Shown: positions 14,505 through 27,410 of the stretch, piece by piece
Position numbering within the stretch: the stretch's first letter is position 1
Layout of the letters: the number at the start of each line of letters is the position of its first letter
Assembly (NCBI GenBank): GCA_018394315.1
Contig: CP074575.1
Location: 1,210,615 to 1,274,614 of the forward strand
Length of the DNA: 64,000 nucleotides
DNA from: Mycoplasmatota bacterium
GTDB lineage: Bacteria > Bacillota_I > Bacilli_A > MAG-NZ
Direction of reading: 5' to 3'
Notes under the pieces: generated by a model
Databases searched by the model: none
Seen by the model: the letters and a program-made list of their open reading frames with translations, nothing else
What the model was told of the DNA's origin: nothing
Program-made: the position numbers and the translations under genes

Positions 14505-16358
14505 ATGGTGAATAGGCAACAATTATTAGAAAAATACGAAGCAGAAAAAAATAGAATTCTTAATAGATCAGGTGATATTGCTCTAGGGAAGAAAGAGATA
14601 TTAGTTTGTGCGGGAACAGGTTGCATGTCTAGTAAATCTTTGAAGATAATCGAAAACTTAGAAAAAGCAATTAAGGATAATGGATTAGATATAGATGTAC
14701 ACGGGACTGGATGTTTTGGTTTTTGTGGAAAAGGTCCCATTGTTAAAATTATGCCAGATGATACTTTTTATTCAGAAGTATCTGTGGATGATGCCGAGAA
14801 AATTGTTAGCCACTTAGCAAAAAATGAAATTTATGAAGAGAAACTATTTATAAATCCAGATACTAAAGTAAGAGCAACGACTACTAATGAAATACCTTTC
14901 TACAATAAACAAGTACGATTAGCATTAAAGAACTGTGGTTTTGTTAATGCTGAAAGTATAGATGATTACATTGGTGCTAAAGGATATCAGGCACTTGCCT
15001 TAGCCTTGGAAAAGTCTCCGCAAGAGATAATAGATATAATTAAAGAATCCGGAATTAGAGGTCGCGGAGGAGGAGGATTCTCTACAGGCCTTAAATGGGA
15101 ATTTGCATTCAAGAATAAAGCTGATCAAAAGTATGTAGTTTGTAATGCAGATGAAGGAGATCCTGGAGCTTTTATGGATCGAAGTATCTTAGAGGGTGAT
15201 CCACACAGTGTAATTGAAGCTATGGCGATATGTGGGTATGCAATAGGTGCTAGTGAAGGTTATGTATATATTAGAGCAGAGTATCCTGTTGCATATGATA
15301 GATTAGTTAAAGCAATCAAAGCTGCTAGAGAAGAAGGACTTCTTGGGAAAAATATCCTAGGATCTAGTTTAGATTTTGATATATTAATCAAATTTGGAGC
15401 TGGGGCGTTTGTATGTGGTGAAGAAACCGCTTTAATATCTTCTATGGAAGGTAAACGTGGAGAGCCTACATCAAAACCACCATTCCCTGCAGAAAAAGGA
15501 TTTTGGAAGAAACCTACTAATGTAAATAATGTAGAAACACTTGCAAATATTCCTCAGATTATTCTAAACGGTGCAGATTGGTTTAGTAAAATTGGAACCG
15601 AAAAGTCAAGTGGGACAAAGGTGTTTGCGCTTGCTGGAAAAATTAACAATGTTGGATTAGTTGAGGTTCCGATGGGTACAACTTTGAGAGAAGTTATATA
15701 TGACATCGGTGGTGGAATTGTTGATGGAAAGAAATTCAAAGCGGTTCAAACAGGTGGACCAAGCGGTGGTTGTTTAACAGAAGAAGACTTAGATACACCA
15801 ATTGACTTTGACAGTTTGATACAAAAAGGATCCATGATGGGTTCTGGCGGAATGATTGTAATGGATGAAGATGATTGTATGGTATCTGTTGCTAAATTCT
15901 TCTTAGAATTTACCGAAGAAGAATCATGTGGAAAATGTACCCCTTGTCGCATAGGTACCAAAAGATTACTAGAAGTACTTGTTGAAATTACTGAGGGAAG
16001 AGGAAACATGAAGCATATTGAGGAACTTAGAAGATTATGTACTGTAATAAAAGAAACTTCACTATGTGGATTAGGTCAATCAGCACCAAACCCGATTTTA
16101 TCAACGTTAGAAAAATTTGAAAATGAGTACATTGAACACATTAAGAAAAAGAAATGTCGTGCTCATTCTTGTAACGATTTAATTCAGTATTTAATAGATG
16201 TAAATGAGTGTGTGGGTTGTACTGCTTGTAAGAAAGTATGTCCAACTAGTTGTATTTCGGGTGAAGTTAAGAAAATTCATTCAATAAACCAGGAAAATTG
16301 CATTAAATGTGGGGCTTGTAAGTCTACATGCAGATTCAATGCAATTGTGGTAAGGTAG
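14505..16358 (+). CDS. hydB: Electron-bifurcating [FeFe]-hydrogenase beta subunit (NuoF-like, FMN/NADH)
   Basis: N-terminal 2Fe-2S, GRGGGGF, CNADEGDPGAFMDR, GAFVCGEETAL, ESCGKCTPCR, C-terminal 2x[4Fe-4S]. Confidence 0.94.
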   Translation: MVNRQQLLEKYEAEKNRILNRSGDIALGKKEILVCAGTGCMSSKSLKIIENLEKAIKDNGLDIDVHGTGCFGFCGKGPIVKIMPDDTFYSEVSVDDAEKIVSHLAKNEIYEEKLFINPDTKVRATTTNEIPFYNKQVRLALKNCGFVNAESIDDYIGAKGYQALALALEKSPQEIIDIIKESGIRGRGGGGFSTGLKWEFAFKNKADQKYVVCNADEGDPGAFMDRSILEGDPHSVIEAMAICGYAIGASEGYVYIRAEYPVAYDRLVKAIKAAREEGLLGKNILGSSLDFDILIKFGAGAFVCGEETALISSMEGKRGEPTSKPPFPAEKGFWKKPTNVNNVETLANIPQIILNGADWFSKIGTEKSSGTKVFALAGKINNVGLVEVPMGTTLREVIYDIGGGIVDGKKFKAVQTGGPSGGCLTEEDLDTPIDFDSLIQKGSMMGSGGMIVMDEDDCMVSVAKFFLEFTEEESCGKCTPCRIGTKRLLEVLVEITEGRGNMKHIEELRRLCTVIKETSLCGLGQSAPNPILSTLEKFENEYIEHIKKKKCRAHSCNDLIQYLIDVNECVGCTACKKVCPTSCISGEVKKIHSINQENCIKCGACKSTCRFNAIVVR

Positions 16359-16366
16359 GTGAGAAG

Positions 16367-18130
16367 ATGAGTAAAATGAATATTACAATCGATGGTAAAA
16401 ATATAGAAGTGGATTCAAATAGTACTATTCTTGAAGCTTGTAAAAAGCTTAATATAATTATCCCTACTCTTTGTCATTTGGATTTACATGATCTAAAAAT
16501 GGTTAATAAGTCAGCTTCTTGCAGAATTTGTGTTGTAGAAGTTGAAGGAAGAAACAATTTAGTGACAGCTTGTTCTACACCAGTTGCTGATGGGATGGTA
16601 GTAAATACACATAATATCAGAGTTATGAACGCAAGGAAAACAGTTCTTGAATTAATGTTAAGTGACCATCCTGCAGAATGCTTATCTTGTTCTAAAGGTG
16701 GAAATTGCGATTTACAGCATATGGCTGAAAGATTCGGAATGAGAGAGATAAGAGTAACAGGAAAATCACAATCTACTTATAGGAAAGATAAAACAGTTTC
16801 AATCAGACGTAATTTAGATAAATGTATAATGTGCAGAAGATGTGAAACAATGTGTAACGAGGTTCAATCTGTTGGAGCACTATCAGCGATAAATCGTGGA
16901 TTTGATGCAGTAGTAGCACCGACATTTGAAGTGAATTTACATGATTCAGTATGTACTTTCTGTGGACAATGTGTTCAAGTGTGCCCTGTAGGAGCTTTAA
17001 CAGAGACGGATAGATCGTGGGAAGTAATTGAAGCACTAGCTAATCCTAGAAAGACTGTAGTTGTAGAGACGGCTCCTGCTGTTCGAGTAGCCCTTGGAGA
17101 AGAATTTGGGTATGAACCAGGTACCAATGTAACTGGAAAGATGGTTTCAGCGTTTAGACAACTAGGATTCGACTATGTGTTTGATACAAACTTTGCTGCT
17201 GATTTAACCATTATGGAAGAGGCAACAGAGTTACTTGAAAGAATAAAAAGGCTTAAAAGTGGAGAAAAAGACGTTAATCTTCCAATGCTAACATCTTGTT
17301 GTCCTGCGTGGGTTGCTTTTATAGAAACACAATTTCCTGAATTATTAGATATACCTTCTAGTGTAAAGTCACCTCAACAGATATTAGGAATTATAGCAAA
17401 GACTTATTTTGCTGAGAAAATAAATGTTGACCGTAAAGATATGGTAGTGGTCTCTGTTATGCCTTGCCTTGCTAAAAAATATGAGGCAGGAATTGAATCA
17501 TTCAAAGAAGATGGGAACCCAGATGTGGATATTGTATTGTCTACAAGAGAGTTTGCACAACTAATAAAGTTATCCAATATAGATTTTAATAGCTTAGAAA
17601 ATGAGGACTTTGATAATCCGTTAGGTGAATCATCTGGCGCCGGAGCGATTTTCGGTACAACTGGTGGAGTTATAGAGGCTGCAACAAGAACAGCAGTAGA
17701 GTGGATTACAGGTGAATCATTAGATAATGTTGATTATAAATCTATGCGTGGAGAAGAAGGGATAAGGATTGCCAATCTAAAGGTTAAAGATTTAGAAATA
17801 AACATTGGTATTGCTAATGGTCTTGGAAGTGCTAGAGAATTACTAGAAGAAATCCAAGCAGGAAATCCTAGAAATTTACACGCTATTGAGATTATGGCAT
17901 GTCCACAAGGTTGTATCGATGGTGGAGGACAACCATATCACCATGGGAATATAGATATCATTAAAAAGCGTAAGCAAGCTATTTATGAAGTAGATGGAAA
18001 GAAAACTATTAGAAAATCCCATGAAAATCCAAGTATTCAAAAACTTTACAAAGAATATTTAGGAGAACCATTAGGAGAAAAATCACACAAATTACTTCAT
18101 AGAGAATACGACAAAAAAGAAAGAGTATAA
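16367..18130 (+). CDS. hydA: [FeFe]-hydrogenase catalytic subunit (group A3)
   Basis: H-cluster motifs TSCCPAW, MPCLAKKYE, EIMACPQGCIDGGGQP; N-terminal F-clusters; start at ATG 16367. Confidence 0.95.
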   Translation: MSKMNITIDGKNIEVDSNSTILEACKKLNIIIPTLCHLDLHDLKMVNKSASCRICVVEVEGRNNLVTACSTPVADGMVVNTHNIRVMNARKTVLELMLSDHPAECLSCSKGGNCDLQHMAERFGMREIRVTGKSQSTYRKDKTVSIRRNLDKCIMCRRCETMCNEVQSVGALSAINRGFDAVVAPTFEVNLHDSVCTFCGQCVQVCPVGALTETDRSWEVIEALANPRKTVVVETAPAVRVALGEEFGYEPGTNVTGKMVSAFRQLGFDYVFDTNFAADLTIMEEATELLERIKRLKSGEKDVNLPMLTSCCPAWVAFIETQFPELLDIPSSVKSPQQILGIIAKTYFAEKINVDRKDMVVVSVMPCLAKKYEAGIESFKEDGNPDVDIVLSTREFAQLIKLSNIDFNSLENEDFDNPLGESSGAGAIFGTTGGVIEAATRTAVEWITGESLDNVDYKSMRGEEGIRIANLKVKDLEINIGIANGLGSARELLEEIQAGNPRNLHAIEIMACPQGCIDGGGQPYHHGNIDIIKKRKQAIYEVDGKKTIRKSHENPSIQKLYKEYLGEPLGEKSHKLLHREYDKKERV

Positions 18131-18136
18131 ATTAAA

Positions 18137-19642
18137 GGCTCTAAGTCAAGGATTGGGGTAAACTCAATAAAAGAGTAAGAGCTCAAAGGATGTAGATTGA
18201 AAAATCTATGTCCTTTTTTTGTGCATAACTATGCAGATACAACGTGTCTTGAATTATTGTGATGATAAAGGATCTTGTTTCTAAAGGTATTGAAACATCT
18301 GAACCCGTATGAAGTACGTTTAATCACTTTGATATAGTTGTTAGATCCTTCTATAAAAGAACTAGTATATTTAGTATTCGTATCAGGATTAATCATAAAT
18401 GAATTGACTATTTCAGGTAACCATCGTTCAATTGATAATGCTGCTTCTCTATATTCACCAATGTTAGATTTTTTAGATTCAATTATCCAACTAGAGATTT
18501 TAGAATAAACATCAGGATAAGTAGAGCTATGAACAATCTCATAAAATGATTCTAGTAGTTCCCTAGCTGTAGCTAACTCTGGATGGATGTTTCTCATATA
18601 ATCTAGTAAGTAAGAATCGCTAGTCCATTGTTTAGTTCTTTTGTCAAACTTCCAATCATTAGAGATGTTTTCCGGCTTTGTATTAAATAATCTCCACCTA
18701 GACTTGAGAACTTTATATTCTTTATCAGTACGATTAAATTTCTTCATAATCCGTATTCTTATCTTTTTAGCTGCATTGGTGACTAGTCTCACAAAATGGA
18801 ATGTATCAATAACTATAGTAGCGTTAGGGAAGAACTCCTTACAAATATCATAGTAAGTATGATACATATCCATAGTAATAACCTCTACATTATTAAGTTC
18901 TTCAGAACTAAACTTACTAAAGTAATGATGTAAATAATCCTTATACCTACATGGTAATATGTCGATTATCTTTCTGTTCGACGGATCACATAGAGATAGA
19001 TTATACTTATATCCACCACTATTACCTTTGAATTCGTCAATGCTTAATACTCTAGGTAAAGACTTTCTAGATTGTTTACAATACATATTAAATATTCTTC
19101 TTACAGTGGTAGAAGACATATTAAGTCTTTTCCCCATGTCTTTGAAAGAAGAAACAAGTATAGCTTCTTTAATAACACTCCATTTAGAGTTAGTACTTAT
19201 CTTATTGTACTTCTCTACGAATTGATTAGGTAAAGAGAACCTCTTACCACAATCACAACGATATCTACGTTGTTTGTATCTAATAAAACACTTACGGTTA
19301 TTGAAAACACCGTGATTAATAGTTCGAGTATAGTAGTCATGAACTTTATCAGTTAGCTCTCCGCATACAGGACATTTAGATAACTGACGCTCTCTGGATA
19401 AGTTAATTATAATTTCATCTCCTACATGTTCATAACCATCAATGTGAATATTTTGATCATCAATGTTGAATAGTGATTTCAAATCTTCATTAAATGTGAT
19501 AAAATTTCTTTGCATAATACACCTCTTTTAATTGGGTTTCGTCGCTTTAATTATAACGTGTTATTATGCACTTTTTTTATTTCCGCTAAAAAAGTTTGAA
19601 ATAAGAGAATAACTCTCTTACCCCAAACTTAATTTTACAGCC
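18137..19642 (-). mobile_element. ISL3-family insertion sequence, 1506 bp, apparently intact
   Basis: 24-bp imperfect terminal IRs starting GGCT and ending TTGGGGTA (17/24 identical); 8-bp target duplication AAATTAAA at 18129-18136 and 19643-19650. Confidence 0.93.
18229..19515 (-). CDS. ISL3-family transposase
   Basis: CPVCG...CDC zinc finger, LSIDEF, TMDM, IVIDTFH, EGSNNYIKVIKRTSYGFR. Confidence 0.95.
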   Translation of the reverse strand: MQRNFITFNEDLKSLFNIDDQNIHIDGYEHVGDEIIINLSRERQLSKCPVCGELTDKVHDYYTRTINHGVFNNRKCFIRYKQRRYRCDCGKRFSLPNQFVEKYNKISTNSKWSVIKEAILVSSFKDMGKRLNMSSTTVRRIFNMYCKQSRKSLPRVLSIDEFKGNSGGYKYNLSLCDPSNRKIIDILPCRYKDYLHHYFSKFSSEELNNVEVITMDMYHTYYDICKEFFPNATIVIDTFHFVRLVTNAAKKIRIRIMKKFNRTDKEYKVLKSRWRLFNTKPENISNDWKFDKRTKQWTSDSYLLDYMRNIHPELATARELLESFYEIVHSSTYPDVYSKISSWIIESKKSNIGEYREAALSIERWLPEIVNSFMINPDTNTKYTSSFIEGSNNYIKVIKRTSYGFRCFNTFRNKILYHHNNSRHVVSA

Positions 19643-23548: not shown

Positions 23549-23968
23549 TTACAAACAATTTGAAGGATATTTTTGGTTATTAAAATAAGAAAAGGGTAGT
23601 AATGCTAGCAATATAAATAATATAAACAGTAATGGGAAATCATTGCTCTTTTTTATTTTGGTATGCACCTCGTGATTTATTATTAAACCTATACTTCCAC
23701 AACATGCTTTATCACGTGAACTTTTTCCTTTTGGTGTAATTTCAACGCTCTTTAAAAGAGAACAAGTTTTCGAATACGACTCCCCTGGACTTAGTGTTTT
23801 TATGGGTTCCTTACTCCCGTTTACACTTATATCGATTTTACACGGACCATCTGAATAGTGAACTATCATTGTTCCAGAAGACTCAGTAATTGACTTGTCA
23901 CAAGACCAAAATGTTTGTTTTTTTGATTCTTTAACCTTGAAATCAAATTTCAACTCATGTTTCCTCAT
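23549..23968 (-). CDS. Ena/DUF3992-like endospore appendage subunit with C-terminal hydrophobic tail
   Basis: TFW...SGTMIVHYSDG...VNG...PGESYSKT...CCGSIGLIINH core, then FPLLFILFILLALLPF; RBS GGAGG, ATG 23968. Confidence 0.6.
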   Translation of the reverse strand: MRKHELKFDFKVKESKKQTFWSCDKSITESSGTMIVHYSDGPCKIDISVNGSKEPIKTLSPGESYSKTCSLLKSVEITPKGKSSRDKACCGSIGLIINHEVHTKIKKSNDFPLLFILFILLALLPFSYFNNQKYPSNCL

Positions 23969-23999
23969 ATTGCCCTCCACAAAGCACGTATGTCAAAAA

Positions 24000-24371
24000 T
24001 TATGTATAGTTTAAACTGATACATACAGTACCACAACATCTACCTTTTGAATCACACCCATGAGGGAATTTGCATCTAACACCAACCCTTTTAAGTGTAT
24101 TCAAAGTTATAGCATGAGTTTGCCCTCTTATTATTTTTAAATCTGCAGGATCACGTGGGTCTGAATTATCGTTTAAATATACCTCTAATTCTTTATTACA
24201 TCCATCTTTGTATGTGATTATCAGTGTACCATTAGGATTGCATAAGTTTGGGTCTGCCTCCCAGAGTGTTTCTATCGGTGCTCCCGGTACTGAATCTCTA
24301 CGGTTTTTACAACTTAGAACAAAACCGAATTTGAATTCTTCATGTTTAGGTTTGCAGTAACATGTCAACAT
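24000..24371 (-). CDS. Ena/DUF3992-like endospore appendage subunit, Cys-rich
   Basis: N-terminal CYC; TLWEAD...GTLIITYKDGC...RGQTHAITLNTLKRVGVRC...CCGTVCISLNYT; RBS GGAGGTG, ATG 24371. Confidence 0.68.
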   Translation of the reverse strand: MLTCYCKPKHEEFKFGFVLSCKNRRDSVPGAPIETLWEADPNLCNPNGTLIITYKDGCNKELEVYLNDNSDPRDPADLKIIRGQTHAITLNTLKRVGVRCKFPHGCDSKGRCCGTVCISLNYT

Positions 24372-24700
24372 CAACTTCACCTCCTATAAATAAAACATAA
24401 ATTTGATTTATTATTAGATAATTAAGTAATAAACTACTATGGTTTCAAATGCATTCATTCTATTATTACTCAACAAACTAGAACAAGGTAGTGCTTTTAT
24501 CACGGTTTCTTTAAAAAAAATTGCTTGTAATTATATGTGCATTTATCTATTAAAAGATTATGTTTTGTACTTAAACTAATTTCACCAATAAAAATGGCTT
24601 GTTAATTGTTTATTTTATGTAAGAGTAACACATCAACCAAACATACACTTCCTTATGCTATAATTATTAATAAGTAAAGTTATAGATAGAGGGTGATGGA

Positions 24701-25219
24701 GTGAAGGAATATGCAATAGAGAAACTCGTATGTGAGCTATCTACTGGCAATTTAGATGTATTTGATCAAATTTATTATGAAACAAAGGACTTAGTCTATT
24801 ATGTTATTTTTAATATCCTGAGAAATGATTTAAAAGCTGAGGAACTAATGCAAGAAGTGTATCTTAATATGCTTAGAAAAGTTAGTAATTATAAAAAGAA
24901 GAACTTTTCTGCGTGGATAGCTACAATGGCAAGAAATATGGCAATCAATACATATAATAAAGAAAAAAGAATTAGTTATATGGATTCACAGGAAATGGAA
25001 TTTGTTTTTAAATCAGACTCAAATAGTGATGAAGAATATCTTTTAAATGATATGAGAAGAATTTTAAACGAAACTGAATTTGAAGTGGTGTTGATGCATG
25101 TTATTGGGAATATTACTCATCAAAAGATTTCTGATGGTTTGGGAAAGCCAATAGGAACTGTTTTGTGGATATATAATAAAGCAATGAAAAAGCTTAGAGC
25201 TGGTTTGGAGGTGAAGTAG
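24701..25219 (+). CDS. ECF RNA polymerase sigma factor
   Basis: Region 2 AEELMQEVY...FSAWIATMARN; region 4 THQKISDGLGKPIGTV. Confidence 0.9.
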   Translation: MKEYAIEKLVCELSTGNLDVFDQIYYETKDLVYYVIFNILRNDLKAEELMQEVYLNMLRKVSNYKKKNFSAWIATMARNMAINTYNKEKRISYMDSQEMEFVFKSDSNSDEEYLLNDMRRILNETEFEVVLMHVIGNITHQKISDGLGKPIGTVLWIYNKAMKKLRAGLEVK

Positions 25220-25981
25220 ATGAGTGATAATGATTTGAAAAAATATTTACAGGCAAAAATAAAAATGACAGTACCAAATAAAATTGAGGATATAAAATCA
25301 TCTCCAGAATTTTATGTTAAGAGATCTAGCGTAACATTCAAAAACAGATTTAGATATTCATTTGCTTCTATATTAATATTGATAATTGCTACACTATCAA
25401 TTGTTTTTAAAACTGATGATATTTCTACAATTGTAAGTTTGGACATTAATCCTTCAATTATGATTATGCTAAATGCAAAAGAGGAAGTTGTTAACTTAAA
25501 AGGCAATAATTCTGATGGAGAAGAATTGATAAATGATTTGAATTATAATAAGTTAAATGTTGAAGAAGTTGTTGAAGTGATTATGACTAGAGCTTTAGAG
25601 CAAGATTATATTTTGGATGAGGACATTATTTTATTAGGTATTGAAAGTGATGATGAGGAACTTAAAAACTCTTTGGCGACCAAATTAAATGAAAAAATTA
25701 AAAACAAAATGATGACCAAAAATAAAAATGTTGATGTAATAATTGAAAAGTTTGCTAGCAAAGGTAATTCCGATGAATTAAAAGTTTCAAATGCCAAAGA
25801 TAAAATCATCATGGAGTTAATTGAAAATAGTAATTATACTATAGAAGATTATCAAGTTCTAAGTCAAATGAAGATAAAAGACTTAAATAGCATGATGAAA
25901 GAAAACGAAGCAGATGAAAAGGTTGAACAAAAGAACGGTAATAATGGTAATTCCAATAAGTCTAATAAGCCTAACAATTAA
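25220..25981 (+). CDS. RsgI-like anti-sigma factor (TM plus DINPS extracytoplasmic domain)
   Basis: Single TM, then VSLDINPSIMIMLNAKEEVV...NNSDG; directly abuts the sigma gene. Confidence 0.8.
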   Translation: MSDNDLKKYLQAKIKMTVPNKIEDIKSSPEFYVKRSSVTFKNRFRYSFASILILIIATLSIVFKTDDISTIVSLDINPSIMIMLNAKEEVVNLKGNNSDGEELINDLNYNKLNVEEVVEVIMTRALEQDYILDEDIILLGIESDDEELKNSLATKLNEKIKNKMMTKNKNVDVIIEKFASKGNSDELKVSNAKDKIIMELIENSNYTIEDYQVLSQMKIKDLNSMMKENEADEKVEQKNGNNGNSNKSNKPNN

Positions 25982-26117
25982 TTATACTTAAGTCCTCTAT
26001 TATGAGGATTTTTTCTTTGAAAAAGTTGTTGTGTAGATCTAATAGGAACCAATCCTTAATGAATAACATATATAAATATAGGCATATAACTTTTTAAAAA
26101 AAGAATCGAGGTGTAAT

Positions 26118-27410
26118 ATGCAAATTTATGTAGTTCAAAAAGGTGACACGCTAACAAATATTTCTAAGTTATTTGGGGTACCTGTGGATTTAATAGTCAG
26201 TCAAAATAAAATTACAGAACCAAACAACTTGTTAGAAGGCCAAACAATAATTATACCTGTAGAAGGAATGTATCATTTTGTACAGCAAGGTGAAGACTTA
26301 ACTGGGATAAGTAATTTATACGGTATTCCATTATTTGAAATAATATCAGTAAATAAATTGTCTAACTTTGGTCCGTTGCCAGTTGGATTTCCACTTTATA
26401 TCCCTAGAAAAAGTAAAACTGTCATTGAGACCAGTGCGTATGATGATATAGGTCTCACGAAAGATAATTCTCCTAAGATAATATCTGAAATAGGGAATGC
26501 TCTAACAACTCTTCCTGTCTTCAGTTATCAAGTTAATAGAGATGGATCTTTAACCCTACTAGATGATAATCCTACATTAAATGCAGCTTTTAATAATGGA
26601 GTAGCTCCTGTTTTGGTGATAACAAATATTGAAGATGGTCAATTTAGTCAAGAGCTAGCTACTATCATACTAAACGATGAGACTCTACAGGAGAAGGTAT
26701 TAGAAGAAGCTATTAAGATAATTGAAGAGAAGGGATACTTTGGGTTGGATGTAGATTTCGAGTATTTGGGAGCAGAAAACAAAGAAGCATACGTAAAGTT
26801 TCTTGCGAAAGCTAAAGAGATGTTAAACAATAAGAACCCAAATTATAAACTATCCGTAGCTTTACCTCCTAAAACGTCTGAGGAGCAAAAAGGAACATTG
26901 TATGAAGGACACGATTATGAAGCGATTGGTAAGATTGTAGATCAAGTTTTAATGATGACTTATGAGTGGGGATGGAGTGGAGGTCCACCAATGGCAGTTT
27001 CACCCCTTAATAAAGTTAAAGAAGTAATGGAGTATGCTCTTACAAAGATTCCTAGAAATAAGATTTTGATGGGGGTACCATTATATGGATATGATTGGAC
27101 TCTACCTTATCAAAAAGGCGGTAAGTGGGCAAAAGCAATTGATCAAGTTGAAGCTTATGATATTGCGAATAGGTATGGTGCAGTTATAGAGTATGACGAT
27201 TTAGCTCAGTCACCATTCTTTAACTATGTTGATGAAGAGGGGAATGAACATGAGGTATGGTTTGAGGATGCAAGAAGTTATCAAGCAAAGTTCGATTATG
27301 TTAAAGAATTAGGAATTAGTGGACTTTATAATTGGGTCTTAGGATTTGATTCACCGCAAAATTGGCTGTTAATTGAAGATAATTTTATTCCAGTTAAACT
27401 CTTTAGATAA
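26118..27410 (+). CDS. yaaH: Spore cortex-lytic LysM-GH18 protein (SleL/YaaH/YdhD family)
   Basis: Two LysM domains, GLDVDFEY, HDY, MTYEWGWSGGPPMAVSP, GVPLYGYDW, HEVWFEDARS. Confidence 0.88.
   Translation: MQIYVVQKGDTLTNISKLFGVPVDLIVSQNKITEPNNLLEGQTIIIPVEGMYHFVQQGEDLTGISNLYGIPLFEIISVNKLSNFGPLPVGFPLYIPRKSKTVIETSAYDDIGLTKDNSPKIISEIGNALTTLPVFSYQVNRDGSLTLLDDNPTLNAAFNNGVAPVLVITNIEDGQFSQELATIILNDETLQEKVLEEAIKIIEEKGYFGLDVDFEYLGAENKEAYVKFLAKAKEMLNNKNPNYKLSVALPPKTSEEQKGTLYEGHDYEAIGKIVDQVLMMTYEWGWSGGPPMAVSPLNKVKEVMEYALTKIPRNKILMGVPLYGYDWTLPYQKGGKWAKAIDQVEAYDIANRYGAVIEYDDLAQSPFFNYVDEEGNEHEVWFEDARSYQAKFDYVKELGISGLYNWVLGFDSPQNWLLIEDNFIPVKLFR

Follow-up and report, generated by a model that had tools for sequence, protein, structure and literature searches.

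Two adjacent genes in a 64,000-nucleotide stretch of contig CP074575.1 (hereafter the window), from a bacterium of the Mycoplasmatota clade, encode predicted subunits of endospore appendages (Ena), and the second of them carries a hydrophobic C-terminal tail related to YjcZ/SscA spore coat peptides. Our preferred reading is that the two genes form a small endospore-appendage module, in which the tailed protein (gene 2) would be a coat-tethered base ring and the untailed protein (gene 1) the disulfide-linked shaft, and we give this reading a probability of somewhat less than one half (about 0.48). One part of it, namely that the tail directs an Ena core to the spore envelope, is shared with its main competitor discussed below, and we regard this part as highly probable. 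Positions refer to the whole window unless the own-genome contig or a locus is named. Papers are cited by identifier, and what is taken from them refers to those parts of their text that were available.

Two predicted Ena subunits encoded side by side

Gene 1 (24000..24371, reverse strand, as for all features of the pair; 123 amino acids from ATG) and gene 2 (23549..23968; 139 amino acids) both stop with TAA, are separated by 31 bp, and are each preceded by a GGAGG-type ribosome-binding site (AGGAGG at 24380..24385 for gene 1, and GGAGG at 23974..23978, inside the gap, for gene 2). Their products contain 10 and 6 cysteines, respectively, and are paralogs with 26% identity over 116 columns (E 4e-10 in a single comparison). 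A first-pass annotation, made from the sequence, had described two co-oriented paralogous genes with good ribosome-binding sites, a set of shared core motifs, and an N-terminal CYC motif in gene 1 that gene 2 lacks. All of this agrees with our analysis: every motif quoted is present, CYC occupies residues 4–6 of gene 1, and gene 2 has no N-terminal cysteine.

The assignment to the DUF3992/Ena family made in the same annotation was borne out by profile and structure comparisons. The family profile PF13157 (Enas, DUF3992) matched gene 1 with 51.3 bits (E 1.4e-13) and gene 2 with 51.1 bits at a gathering cut-off of 22, and no other Pfam family matched either protein at E values up to 1. AlphaFold2 predicted eight strands for gene 1 (predicted local distance difference test, pLDDT, 82.6; 9-row alignment), and eight strands, a loose linker and a helix at residues 111–129 for gene 2 (pLDDT 80.8; 6-row alignment). 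With each model, the first five Foldseek rows were all Ena entries (Ena2A, Ena3A, Ena1C, Ena1B). VIA-align comparisons with Ena structures gave Z scores of 11.0–12.0 for gene 1 (root-mean-square deviation 2.2–2.9, 97–107 residues aligned) and 12.3–12.9 for gene 2 (1.9–2.8, 94–103 aligned), and the next entries reached 8.1 and 9.7, respectively. Identity to Ena proteins in the structural alignments is 8–22%; single-sequence searches of the PDB returned 0 matches for either gene, and a profile search of PDB sequences reached Ena1C with an E value of 4e-4. The best feature scores in the ESM Atlas (0.85 and 0.75) fell into Ena-type clusters, none of them listed with PF09680, and serve as leads only. 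By family profile and modelled fold alike, both gene products are Ena jelly-roll subunits.

A YjcZ/SscA-like tail on gene 2

Gene 2 is composed of an Ena core (residues 1–101; 23666..23968), as supported by PF13157, Foldseek, VIA-align and the cysteine register, a Lys-rich linker (residues 102–110; 23639..23665) with low pLDDT at residues 106–108 and three K/R among the 12 residues preceding the helix, the hydrophobic helix (residues 111–129; 23582..23638) with a Kyte-Doolittle value of 2.89 over 15 residues, and a polar, Cys-bearing end (residues 130–139 and the stop codon; 23549..23581). The hydrophobic stretch itself covers residues 111–126 and is followed by 13 more residues. This corrects the first-pass annotation, according to which the protein ended at ...LLPF, and the additional residues form a YPxxC-type end that three relatives have in common.

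A phmmer search of 1.84 billion representative proteins gave eight matches, five with a hydrophobic tail and three without. The six distinct tailed proteins, including gene 2, are collinear, with a core, a basic linker, a helix and a Cys-bearing end; one to three cysteines follow the helix in all six, and four of them have a YP..C end. In trees of the cores alone, which left out six partial, duplicate or poorly aligned rows, the tailed proteins form a single clade (support 98/95 with 85 rows, 96/96 with 36 rows), and the position of the tail is collinear across it. Lack of conservation of the tail in homologs had been named as an argument against the initial interpretation; the tail is kept throughout this six-protein clade.

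The relation of this tail to YjcZ peptides is most evident in P0006, the tailed protein of the relative G004, which passes not only PF13157 (42.9 bits) but also the YjcZ/SscA families PF09680 (40.5 bits, cut-off 21) and TIGR01732 (30.8 bits, cut-off 21.35). Five free YjcZ peptides of 36–63 amino acids, several with a cysteine as their last residue, are encoded in the own genome (own contig 744621, 848334, 1431100, 1771666 and 2152061). A profile built from four tails, leaving out P0006, ranked these five at 6, 7, 8, 10 and 12 of 14,711 targets (16–25 bits), the ranks counting the four training rows, and none of 30 profiles from unrelated helices of similar hydrophobicity placed three free YjcZ peptides among the first ten, their highest score being 10.5 bits. 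The gene 2 tail alone retrieved P0004 first, P0006 third and one free YjcZ peptide fifth of 14,710, with the other four free peptides only at ranks 18–252 and the tailed paralog P0005 at 5,957; 0 of 17 unrelated helices brought P0006 into the top 10. The core of Bacillus subtilis SscA matches the P0006 tail at 12 of 15 positions and the gene 2 tail at 8 of 15 (PMC13417171 supplement, translated by eye). Because of the P0006 family match and the ranks obtained with the tail profile and the single tail in comparison to their controls, we conclude from these sequence comparisons that the tail class is YjcZ-derived, that the gene 2 copy is its most diverged form, and that the homology of the gene 2 tail to the P0006 tail and the free peptides exceeds generic hydrophobicity. 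As to the free peptides themselves, three have long Gly/Tyr/Cys-rich N-termini, and four have a cysteine after the helix, which possibly allows cross-linking.

SscA of B. subtilis is a hydrophobic peptide of 28 residues that depends on SafA, probably resides in the inner coat, and was the best carrier of fused enzymes on spores (PMC13417171), and yjcZ belongs to the sigma-K regulon of this organism (PMC517825). Of the membrane- or coat-embedded anchor that the first-pass annotation had considered, the homology to these peptides favours the coat-embedded part over a plain membrane anchor. A tail-anchored protein of the outer forespore membrane that seeds the fibre or coat early, with the YjcZ likeness reflecting a shared role in membrane insertion, would agree with the uncharged runs of 15–22 residues, with K/R being commoner before than after the helix in five of the six proteins, as fits a cytoplasm-facing core, and with the lack of a SafA match above cut-off in the own genome. 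We nevertheless consider such a protein improbable, as the YjcZ match is sequence-specific beyond hydrophobicity in the controls, SscA loading needs a coat morphogenetic protein (PMC13417171), and known Ena genes are expressed late (PMC12921279).

Cysteine register and proposed assembly

In appendages of the S-ENA type, Cys24 and Cys109 accept the N-terminal connector (bioRxiv 10.1101/2020.08.21.260141), and anchoring by Ena1C requires Cys142 (PMC12921279). We read the cysteine positions via an Ena1B ortholog whose identity was verified against PDB entry 7a02. Residue 1 of gene 1 aligns with Ena1B residue 11, which gives a connector of about half the Ena1B length (residues 1–8 with Cys4-Tyr-Cys6; 24348..24371); gene 2 starts only at the position of Ena1B residue 18 and therefore lacks the connector. 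Cys6 of gene 1 is invariant in all five aligned untailed relatives, and Cys117 in strand I (24021..24023) is the equivalent of the acceptor Cys109 of Ena1B and Cys142 of Ena1C, as judged by the alignment to the Ena1B ortholog; gene 2 has a glycine at this position. The two proteins are therefore complementary in their anatomy, with connector and acceptor in gene 1 and neither in gene 2. As it retains the acceptor in strand I and a connector that is short but bears cysteines, gene 1 is a plausible fibre shaft by its sequence, and since the Cys142 equivalent is absent, gene 2 cannot hold a fibre by the Ena1C route.

Strands B and I of a jelly roll lie next to each other in antiparallel orientation, and the tail should therefore leave the core on the connector face. 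This face points towards the spore in S-ENA (PMC12921279), where the sheet has the strand order BIDG (bioRxiv 10.1101/2020.08.21.260141). The predicted exit of the tail thus favours a basal over a distal position of gene 2. At the distal end, gene 2 could act as a cap whose hydrophobic tail takes the place of a collagen-like ruffle and makes spores adhere to one another or to surfaces. The own genome has no collagen gene, and gene order carries no polarity, both of which would be compatible with such a cap, but since connectors are directed towards the spore (PMC12921279), a cap would be expected to keep one, which gene 2 does not have; moreover, its tail is a coat-peptide homolog. We therefore regard a distal cap as very unlikely.

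A base ring with a shaft could be assembled as follows. Both proteins would be made in the mother cell during late sporulation. Gene 2 would form a ring by beta-augmentation, and its tails would be buried in the coat, side by side with the free YjcZ/SscA peptides, or else in the underlying outer forespore membrane, possibly with cross-links via the cysteines after the helix. The ring would lie at the fibre base with the tail exit face as its spore-facing side, and gene 1 would polymerise on it as a disulfide-linked fibre. Because the Ena1C-type cysteine is absent, the joint would need other cysteines (candidates are Cys43, Cys89 and Cys90), or beta-augmentation through the backbone of the kind proposed in the ExsL model. 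In such an assembly, YjcZ/SscA would be a portable coat-anchoring tag, and the Ena-YjcZ ring would be the foot of a disulfide-linked appendage and a third anchoring route for DUF3992 fibres that uses neither an exosporium lattice nor the Ena1C cysteine; we propose this generalisation tentatively, with less confidence than the module itself.

Tailed relatives and a competing reading

Several observations weigh against a division of labour between shaft and anchor. The genomic context is readable for three tailed genes, namely gene 2, P0005 and P0006. P0005 is the third Ena core of the own genome, a tailed protein of 155 amino acids (own contig 315287–315829, forward strand) with 21.8 bits for PF13157, just below cut-off; the open reading frames (ORFs) just downstream of it form a run that we take to be ATP-grasp-like. 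The P0005 and P0006 genes are solitary, so that gene 2 alone of the three has an untailed neighbour, and G004 (96% complete, one contig) yielded no Ena besides P0006 with PF13157 and two custom alignments. The first-pass annotation had suggested that the same gene pair be sought in related genomes, and with the other two tailed genes being solitary, a shaft-plus-anchor pair as a conserved unit is not borne out. Within gene 1, the connector is short and the Cys24 equivalent in strand B is lacking: the position is a lysine with no cysteine within two positions, and Cys21 sits further along the strand. The Cys109 equivalent is absent from all six tailed proteins (Gly, Gly, Gly, Lys, Glu and Arg), and the Cys24 equivalent occurs in two of the six, gene 2 not being among them. 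As to the tail, gene 2 itself matches neither PF09680 nor TIGR01732, and when the five free YjcZ peptides served as the profile, the gene 2 tail ranked only 313th and P0007 149th. SscA fusions were poorly surface-exposed and their loading depended on SafA, and the tested carrier had its cargo after the peptide, in the opposite order to gene 2 (PMC13417171); SafA gave no match above cut-off in the own genome. Finally, a sigma-K promoter pattern had no match upstream of gene 1 in a low-power scan that matched one of the 12 upstream regions tried.

Some of these points would fit a competing reading without a division into shaft and anchor, in which the tailed Ena suffices by itself as a coat protein, its YjcZ-tethered rings or short knobs stiffening or texturing the coat, and gene 1 is optional and serves as a cap, an extension of the rings or a free fibre. 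In favour of it are the solitary position of two of the three tailed genes whose context is readable, the presence of only a tailed Ena in G004, and the lack of the Cys109 equivalent in all six tailed proteins. Ena1C by itself makes rings and not fibres (PMC12921279), SscA lies deep in the coat (PMC13417171), and the own genome has no collagen tip gene. On the other hand, genes 1 and 2 are 31 bp apart and have complementary features, a very distant shaft subunit of G004 could escape detection, and the tailed clade lies within one subfamily together with connector-bearing subunits (support 93/91). We consider this coat protein the most serious competitor, although a rather doubtful one, and prefer the base ring with a shaft. 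A joint clade of the gene 1 group and the tailed proteins received support of 56/41, which neither establishes nor contradicts their monophyly. For P0009 and P0011, two untailed relatives, the recorded contig is in each case 12,350 bases long, and the two contigs may be one and the same.

Comparison with known appendage systems

Published Ena anchors combine a subunit paralog with a targeting part: ExsL has a CotZ domain (PMC11362473), Ena1C a Cys/Pro linker (PMC12921279), and the F-Anchor a targeting module of its own (PMC12357932). Genes 1 and 2 belong to the Ena family but not to the anchor types of S-ENA or L-ENA. As in S-ENA (Ena1A/B/C and Ena2A; PDB 7a02, 9i0y, 9t3p), the subunit genes are co-oriented and their products have the PF13157 jelly-roll core; gene 1 has both the N-terminal Cys pair and an equivalent of Cys109, and a paralog without a fibre-type connector is the likely base. 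Ena1C, however, tethers by an N-terminal Cys/Pro linker together with Cys142, whereas gene 2 has neither an N-terminal extension nor a Cys142 equivalent, carries the C-terminal YjcZ-type helix instead, and falls outside the Ena1C clade in our trees. Gene 1 differs by CxC in place of CC, by its shorter connector, and by the missing Cys24 equivalent. In L-ENA (ExsL, L-BclA and Ena3A; PDB 8pdz), the anchor ExsL likewise joins an Ena core to a copy of a spore-layer protein, a CotZ/ExsY domain, and is thought to integrate into the layer. There, the module is an N-terminal CotZ domain, whereas that of gene 2 is a C-terminal YjcZ/SscA peptide; no N-terminal CotZ domain (PF10612) was found in gene 2, whose core begins at residues 1–5 and in which PF13157 was the sole match. 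Furthermore, no collagen-like ruffle gene is present in the cluster, and the CotZ-like match of the own genome is below cut-off. F-ENA with its F-Anchor (DUF4183) also pairs a fibre-like domain with a targeting part, and the anchor modules vary by lineage between an exosporium leader and a CsxA-like domain (PMC12357932). It differs in fold and family and by its collagen stalk, and the available text of PMC12357932 has no YjcZ-type module.

The YjcZ/SscA families (PF09680, TIGR01732) share with the tails the hydrophobic motif F/Y-x-L-x-x-x-L-F-I-L-L, fully matched in P0006. Their known members are free peptides of about 28–60 residues, whereas the motif of gene 2 is diverged and forms the tail of a folded fibre subunit. 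The relatives nearest to gene 1 are members of a subfamily with the same CCG loop motif in Anoxybacillus, Rubeoparvulum and some marine Bacillus; the nearest named proteins from Anoxybacillus, Rubeoparvulum and Bacillus are untailed and 29–37% identical, and 0 of 12 newly fetched members carry a tail. In one genome of this subfamily (G904), the neighbouring paralog (289 residues) has, in place of a tail, a long domain C-terminal to its Ena core.

The first-pass annotation had known of no Ena anchoring architecture of this kind. This holds for the YjcZ module and not for the principle of a paralog with a targeting part, which ExsL, Ena1C and the F-Anchor exemplify; the anchor principle is already published, and the YjcZ-type module is the part without precedent in the literature searched. 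In that literature, mostly without subscription papers, we found no Ena-YjcZ fusion, no hydrophobic Ena tail and no Ena outside Bacillota proper, and supplementary Ena trees could list tailed members. The available text of PMC11362473 has no mention of "transmembrane", that of PMC12357932 none of "YjcZ" or "Mycoplasm", and that of the review PMC8619143 is also silent on such a fusion. The receptor of Ena1C is described as unidentified (PMC12921279), and SscA/YjcZ peptides are described as abundant and poorly characterised (PMC13417171). A natural Ena-YjcZ fusion ties the question of fibre attachment to these peptides, and it offers a direct test of the role of the YjcZ motif and, with only two genes, a minimal system for displaying anchored fibres.

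Host genome and distribution

The own genome (2.17 Mb, one contig, 93.6% complete) contains Spo0A, SpoIVA, CotE and small acid-soluble spore proteins above cut-off, in line with the spore context assumed initially. A sigma-K-like gene scored just below cut-off (277.7 versus 298.65), and none passed in the control genomes either; a CotZ-like gene was weak (20.1 bits, below cut-off; own contig 1375316–1375726, reverse strand). From its gene content, we infer that the host is a spore former of the Mycoplasmatota clade. Two small His/Cys-rich ORFs with good ribosome-binding sites (own contig 1251900–1252214, forward, and 1077260–1077526, reverse) are, along with the CotZ-like gene, candidate coat proteins. 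No collagen-like gene lies next to the pair, as noted in the first-pass annotation, and the genome as a whole, at the completeness stated, gave 0 candidates for PF01391.

PF13157 was found above cut-off in 2 of 400 genomes of the class and 1 of 400 of the phylum sample, which consists of small genomes from one class; the own genome is included, all hits are in its own family, one genome was unscored, and two matches below cut-off (G079 and G500) are uncounted. NCBI assigns the Ena protein of a family relative to a Mycoplasmatota bacterium and names it "YjcZ family sporulation protein". The claim of a lineage far from B. cereus is in agreement with these own-family Ena proteins, by which appendage subunits of the B. 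cereus type are placed in the clade of reduced genomes to which the mycoplasmas belong. Most coat genes are predicted to have been lost in that region of the tree (PMC10868615), so that an appendage module, whether retained or acquired, is worthy of note there, and if our reading is true, anchored appendages occur in a lineage where such structures are not known.

Within the order, SpoIVA and YjcZ occur in the same four of eight genomes and Ena in two of these four; the two without Ena are 55% and 97% complete. That Ena and YjcZ are confined to SpoIVA genomes of the order also bears on the idea that both proteins act outside sporulation, for example at the vegetative cell surface. The missing sporulation promoter match in the low-power scan and neighbours that are not spore-specific (a SIMPL protein, an ECF-type sigma factor and RsgI-like genes) would permit such a role, but neither N-terminus shows an evident signal peptide, and yjcZ is in the B. 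subtilis sigma-K regulon (PMC517825), so that we assign only a minimal probability to it.

PF13157 matched 28 of 401 genomes of a Bacilli sample (66 matches), and a 401-genome phylum sample added one further genome with three untailed Ena copies. Among 82 distinct Ena-like ORFs at the Bacilli loci, a hydrophobic C-terminal helix was present in two rows that represent one gene of G823 (L045:1300–1848, reverse strand), which belongs to the Ena1C clade and stands at the head of a series of untailed Ena genes. A single origin with the tailed clade was rejected (AU test, p 0.0004). We do not count this tail as independent confirmation: it gives no score with the tail profile or with the YjcZ profile, and its four best-matching orthologs among 67 genomes of the family are without the helix. 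In the closest ortholog, the helix is missing although the flanks are nearly identical, and we take it to be a sporadic insertion; being of independent origin, it leaves room for the idea that tail capture may recur as a way of making anchors.

Scans of metagenome contigs gave 70 pattern matches, none of them confirmed, and no usable gene context, and one locus was dropped as a high-GC housekeeping region without an Ena ORF. A tblastn search of plasmids returned two weak, unrelated matches only. Three sediment sequencing runs gave short pieces only and no contig that spans the gene pair, and promoter and terminator scans of the locus remained at chance level.

Further observations

Other domain combinations were seen in Bacilli. 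P0012 (L021:1378–2289) and L028:2020–2889 combine an Ena core with a long domain on its C-terminal side, which in P0012 passes NF052457 (BMQ_0737 morphogenetic coat protein); such a long-domain Ena adjoins a small Ena gene in G904 and G540 and is another candidate anchor architecture. In G912 (L053:593–1879, reverse strand), about 316 residues with beta-propeller-like repeats, as judged by eye, are N-terminal to an Ena core. Tandem arrays of five or more Ena-core genes occur in single genomes (G1340, L080/L085/L088; G741, L048).

In the window, divergent from the Ena pair, an ECF-type (extracytoplasmic function) sigma factor and its RsgI-like partner are followed by a LysM-GH18 protein of the spore cortex hydrolase type (24701–27410, forward strand). 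Farther away (14505–19515, forward strand), an ORF pair that resembles, by eye, an electron-bifurcating [FeFe]-hydrogenase is followed by an ISL3-type transposase.
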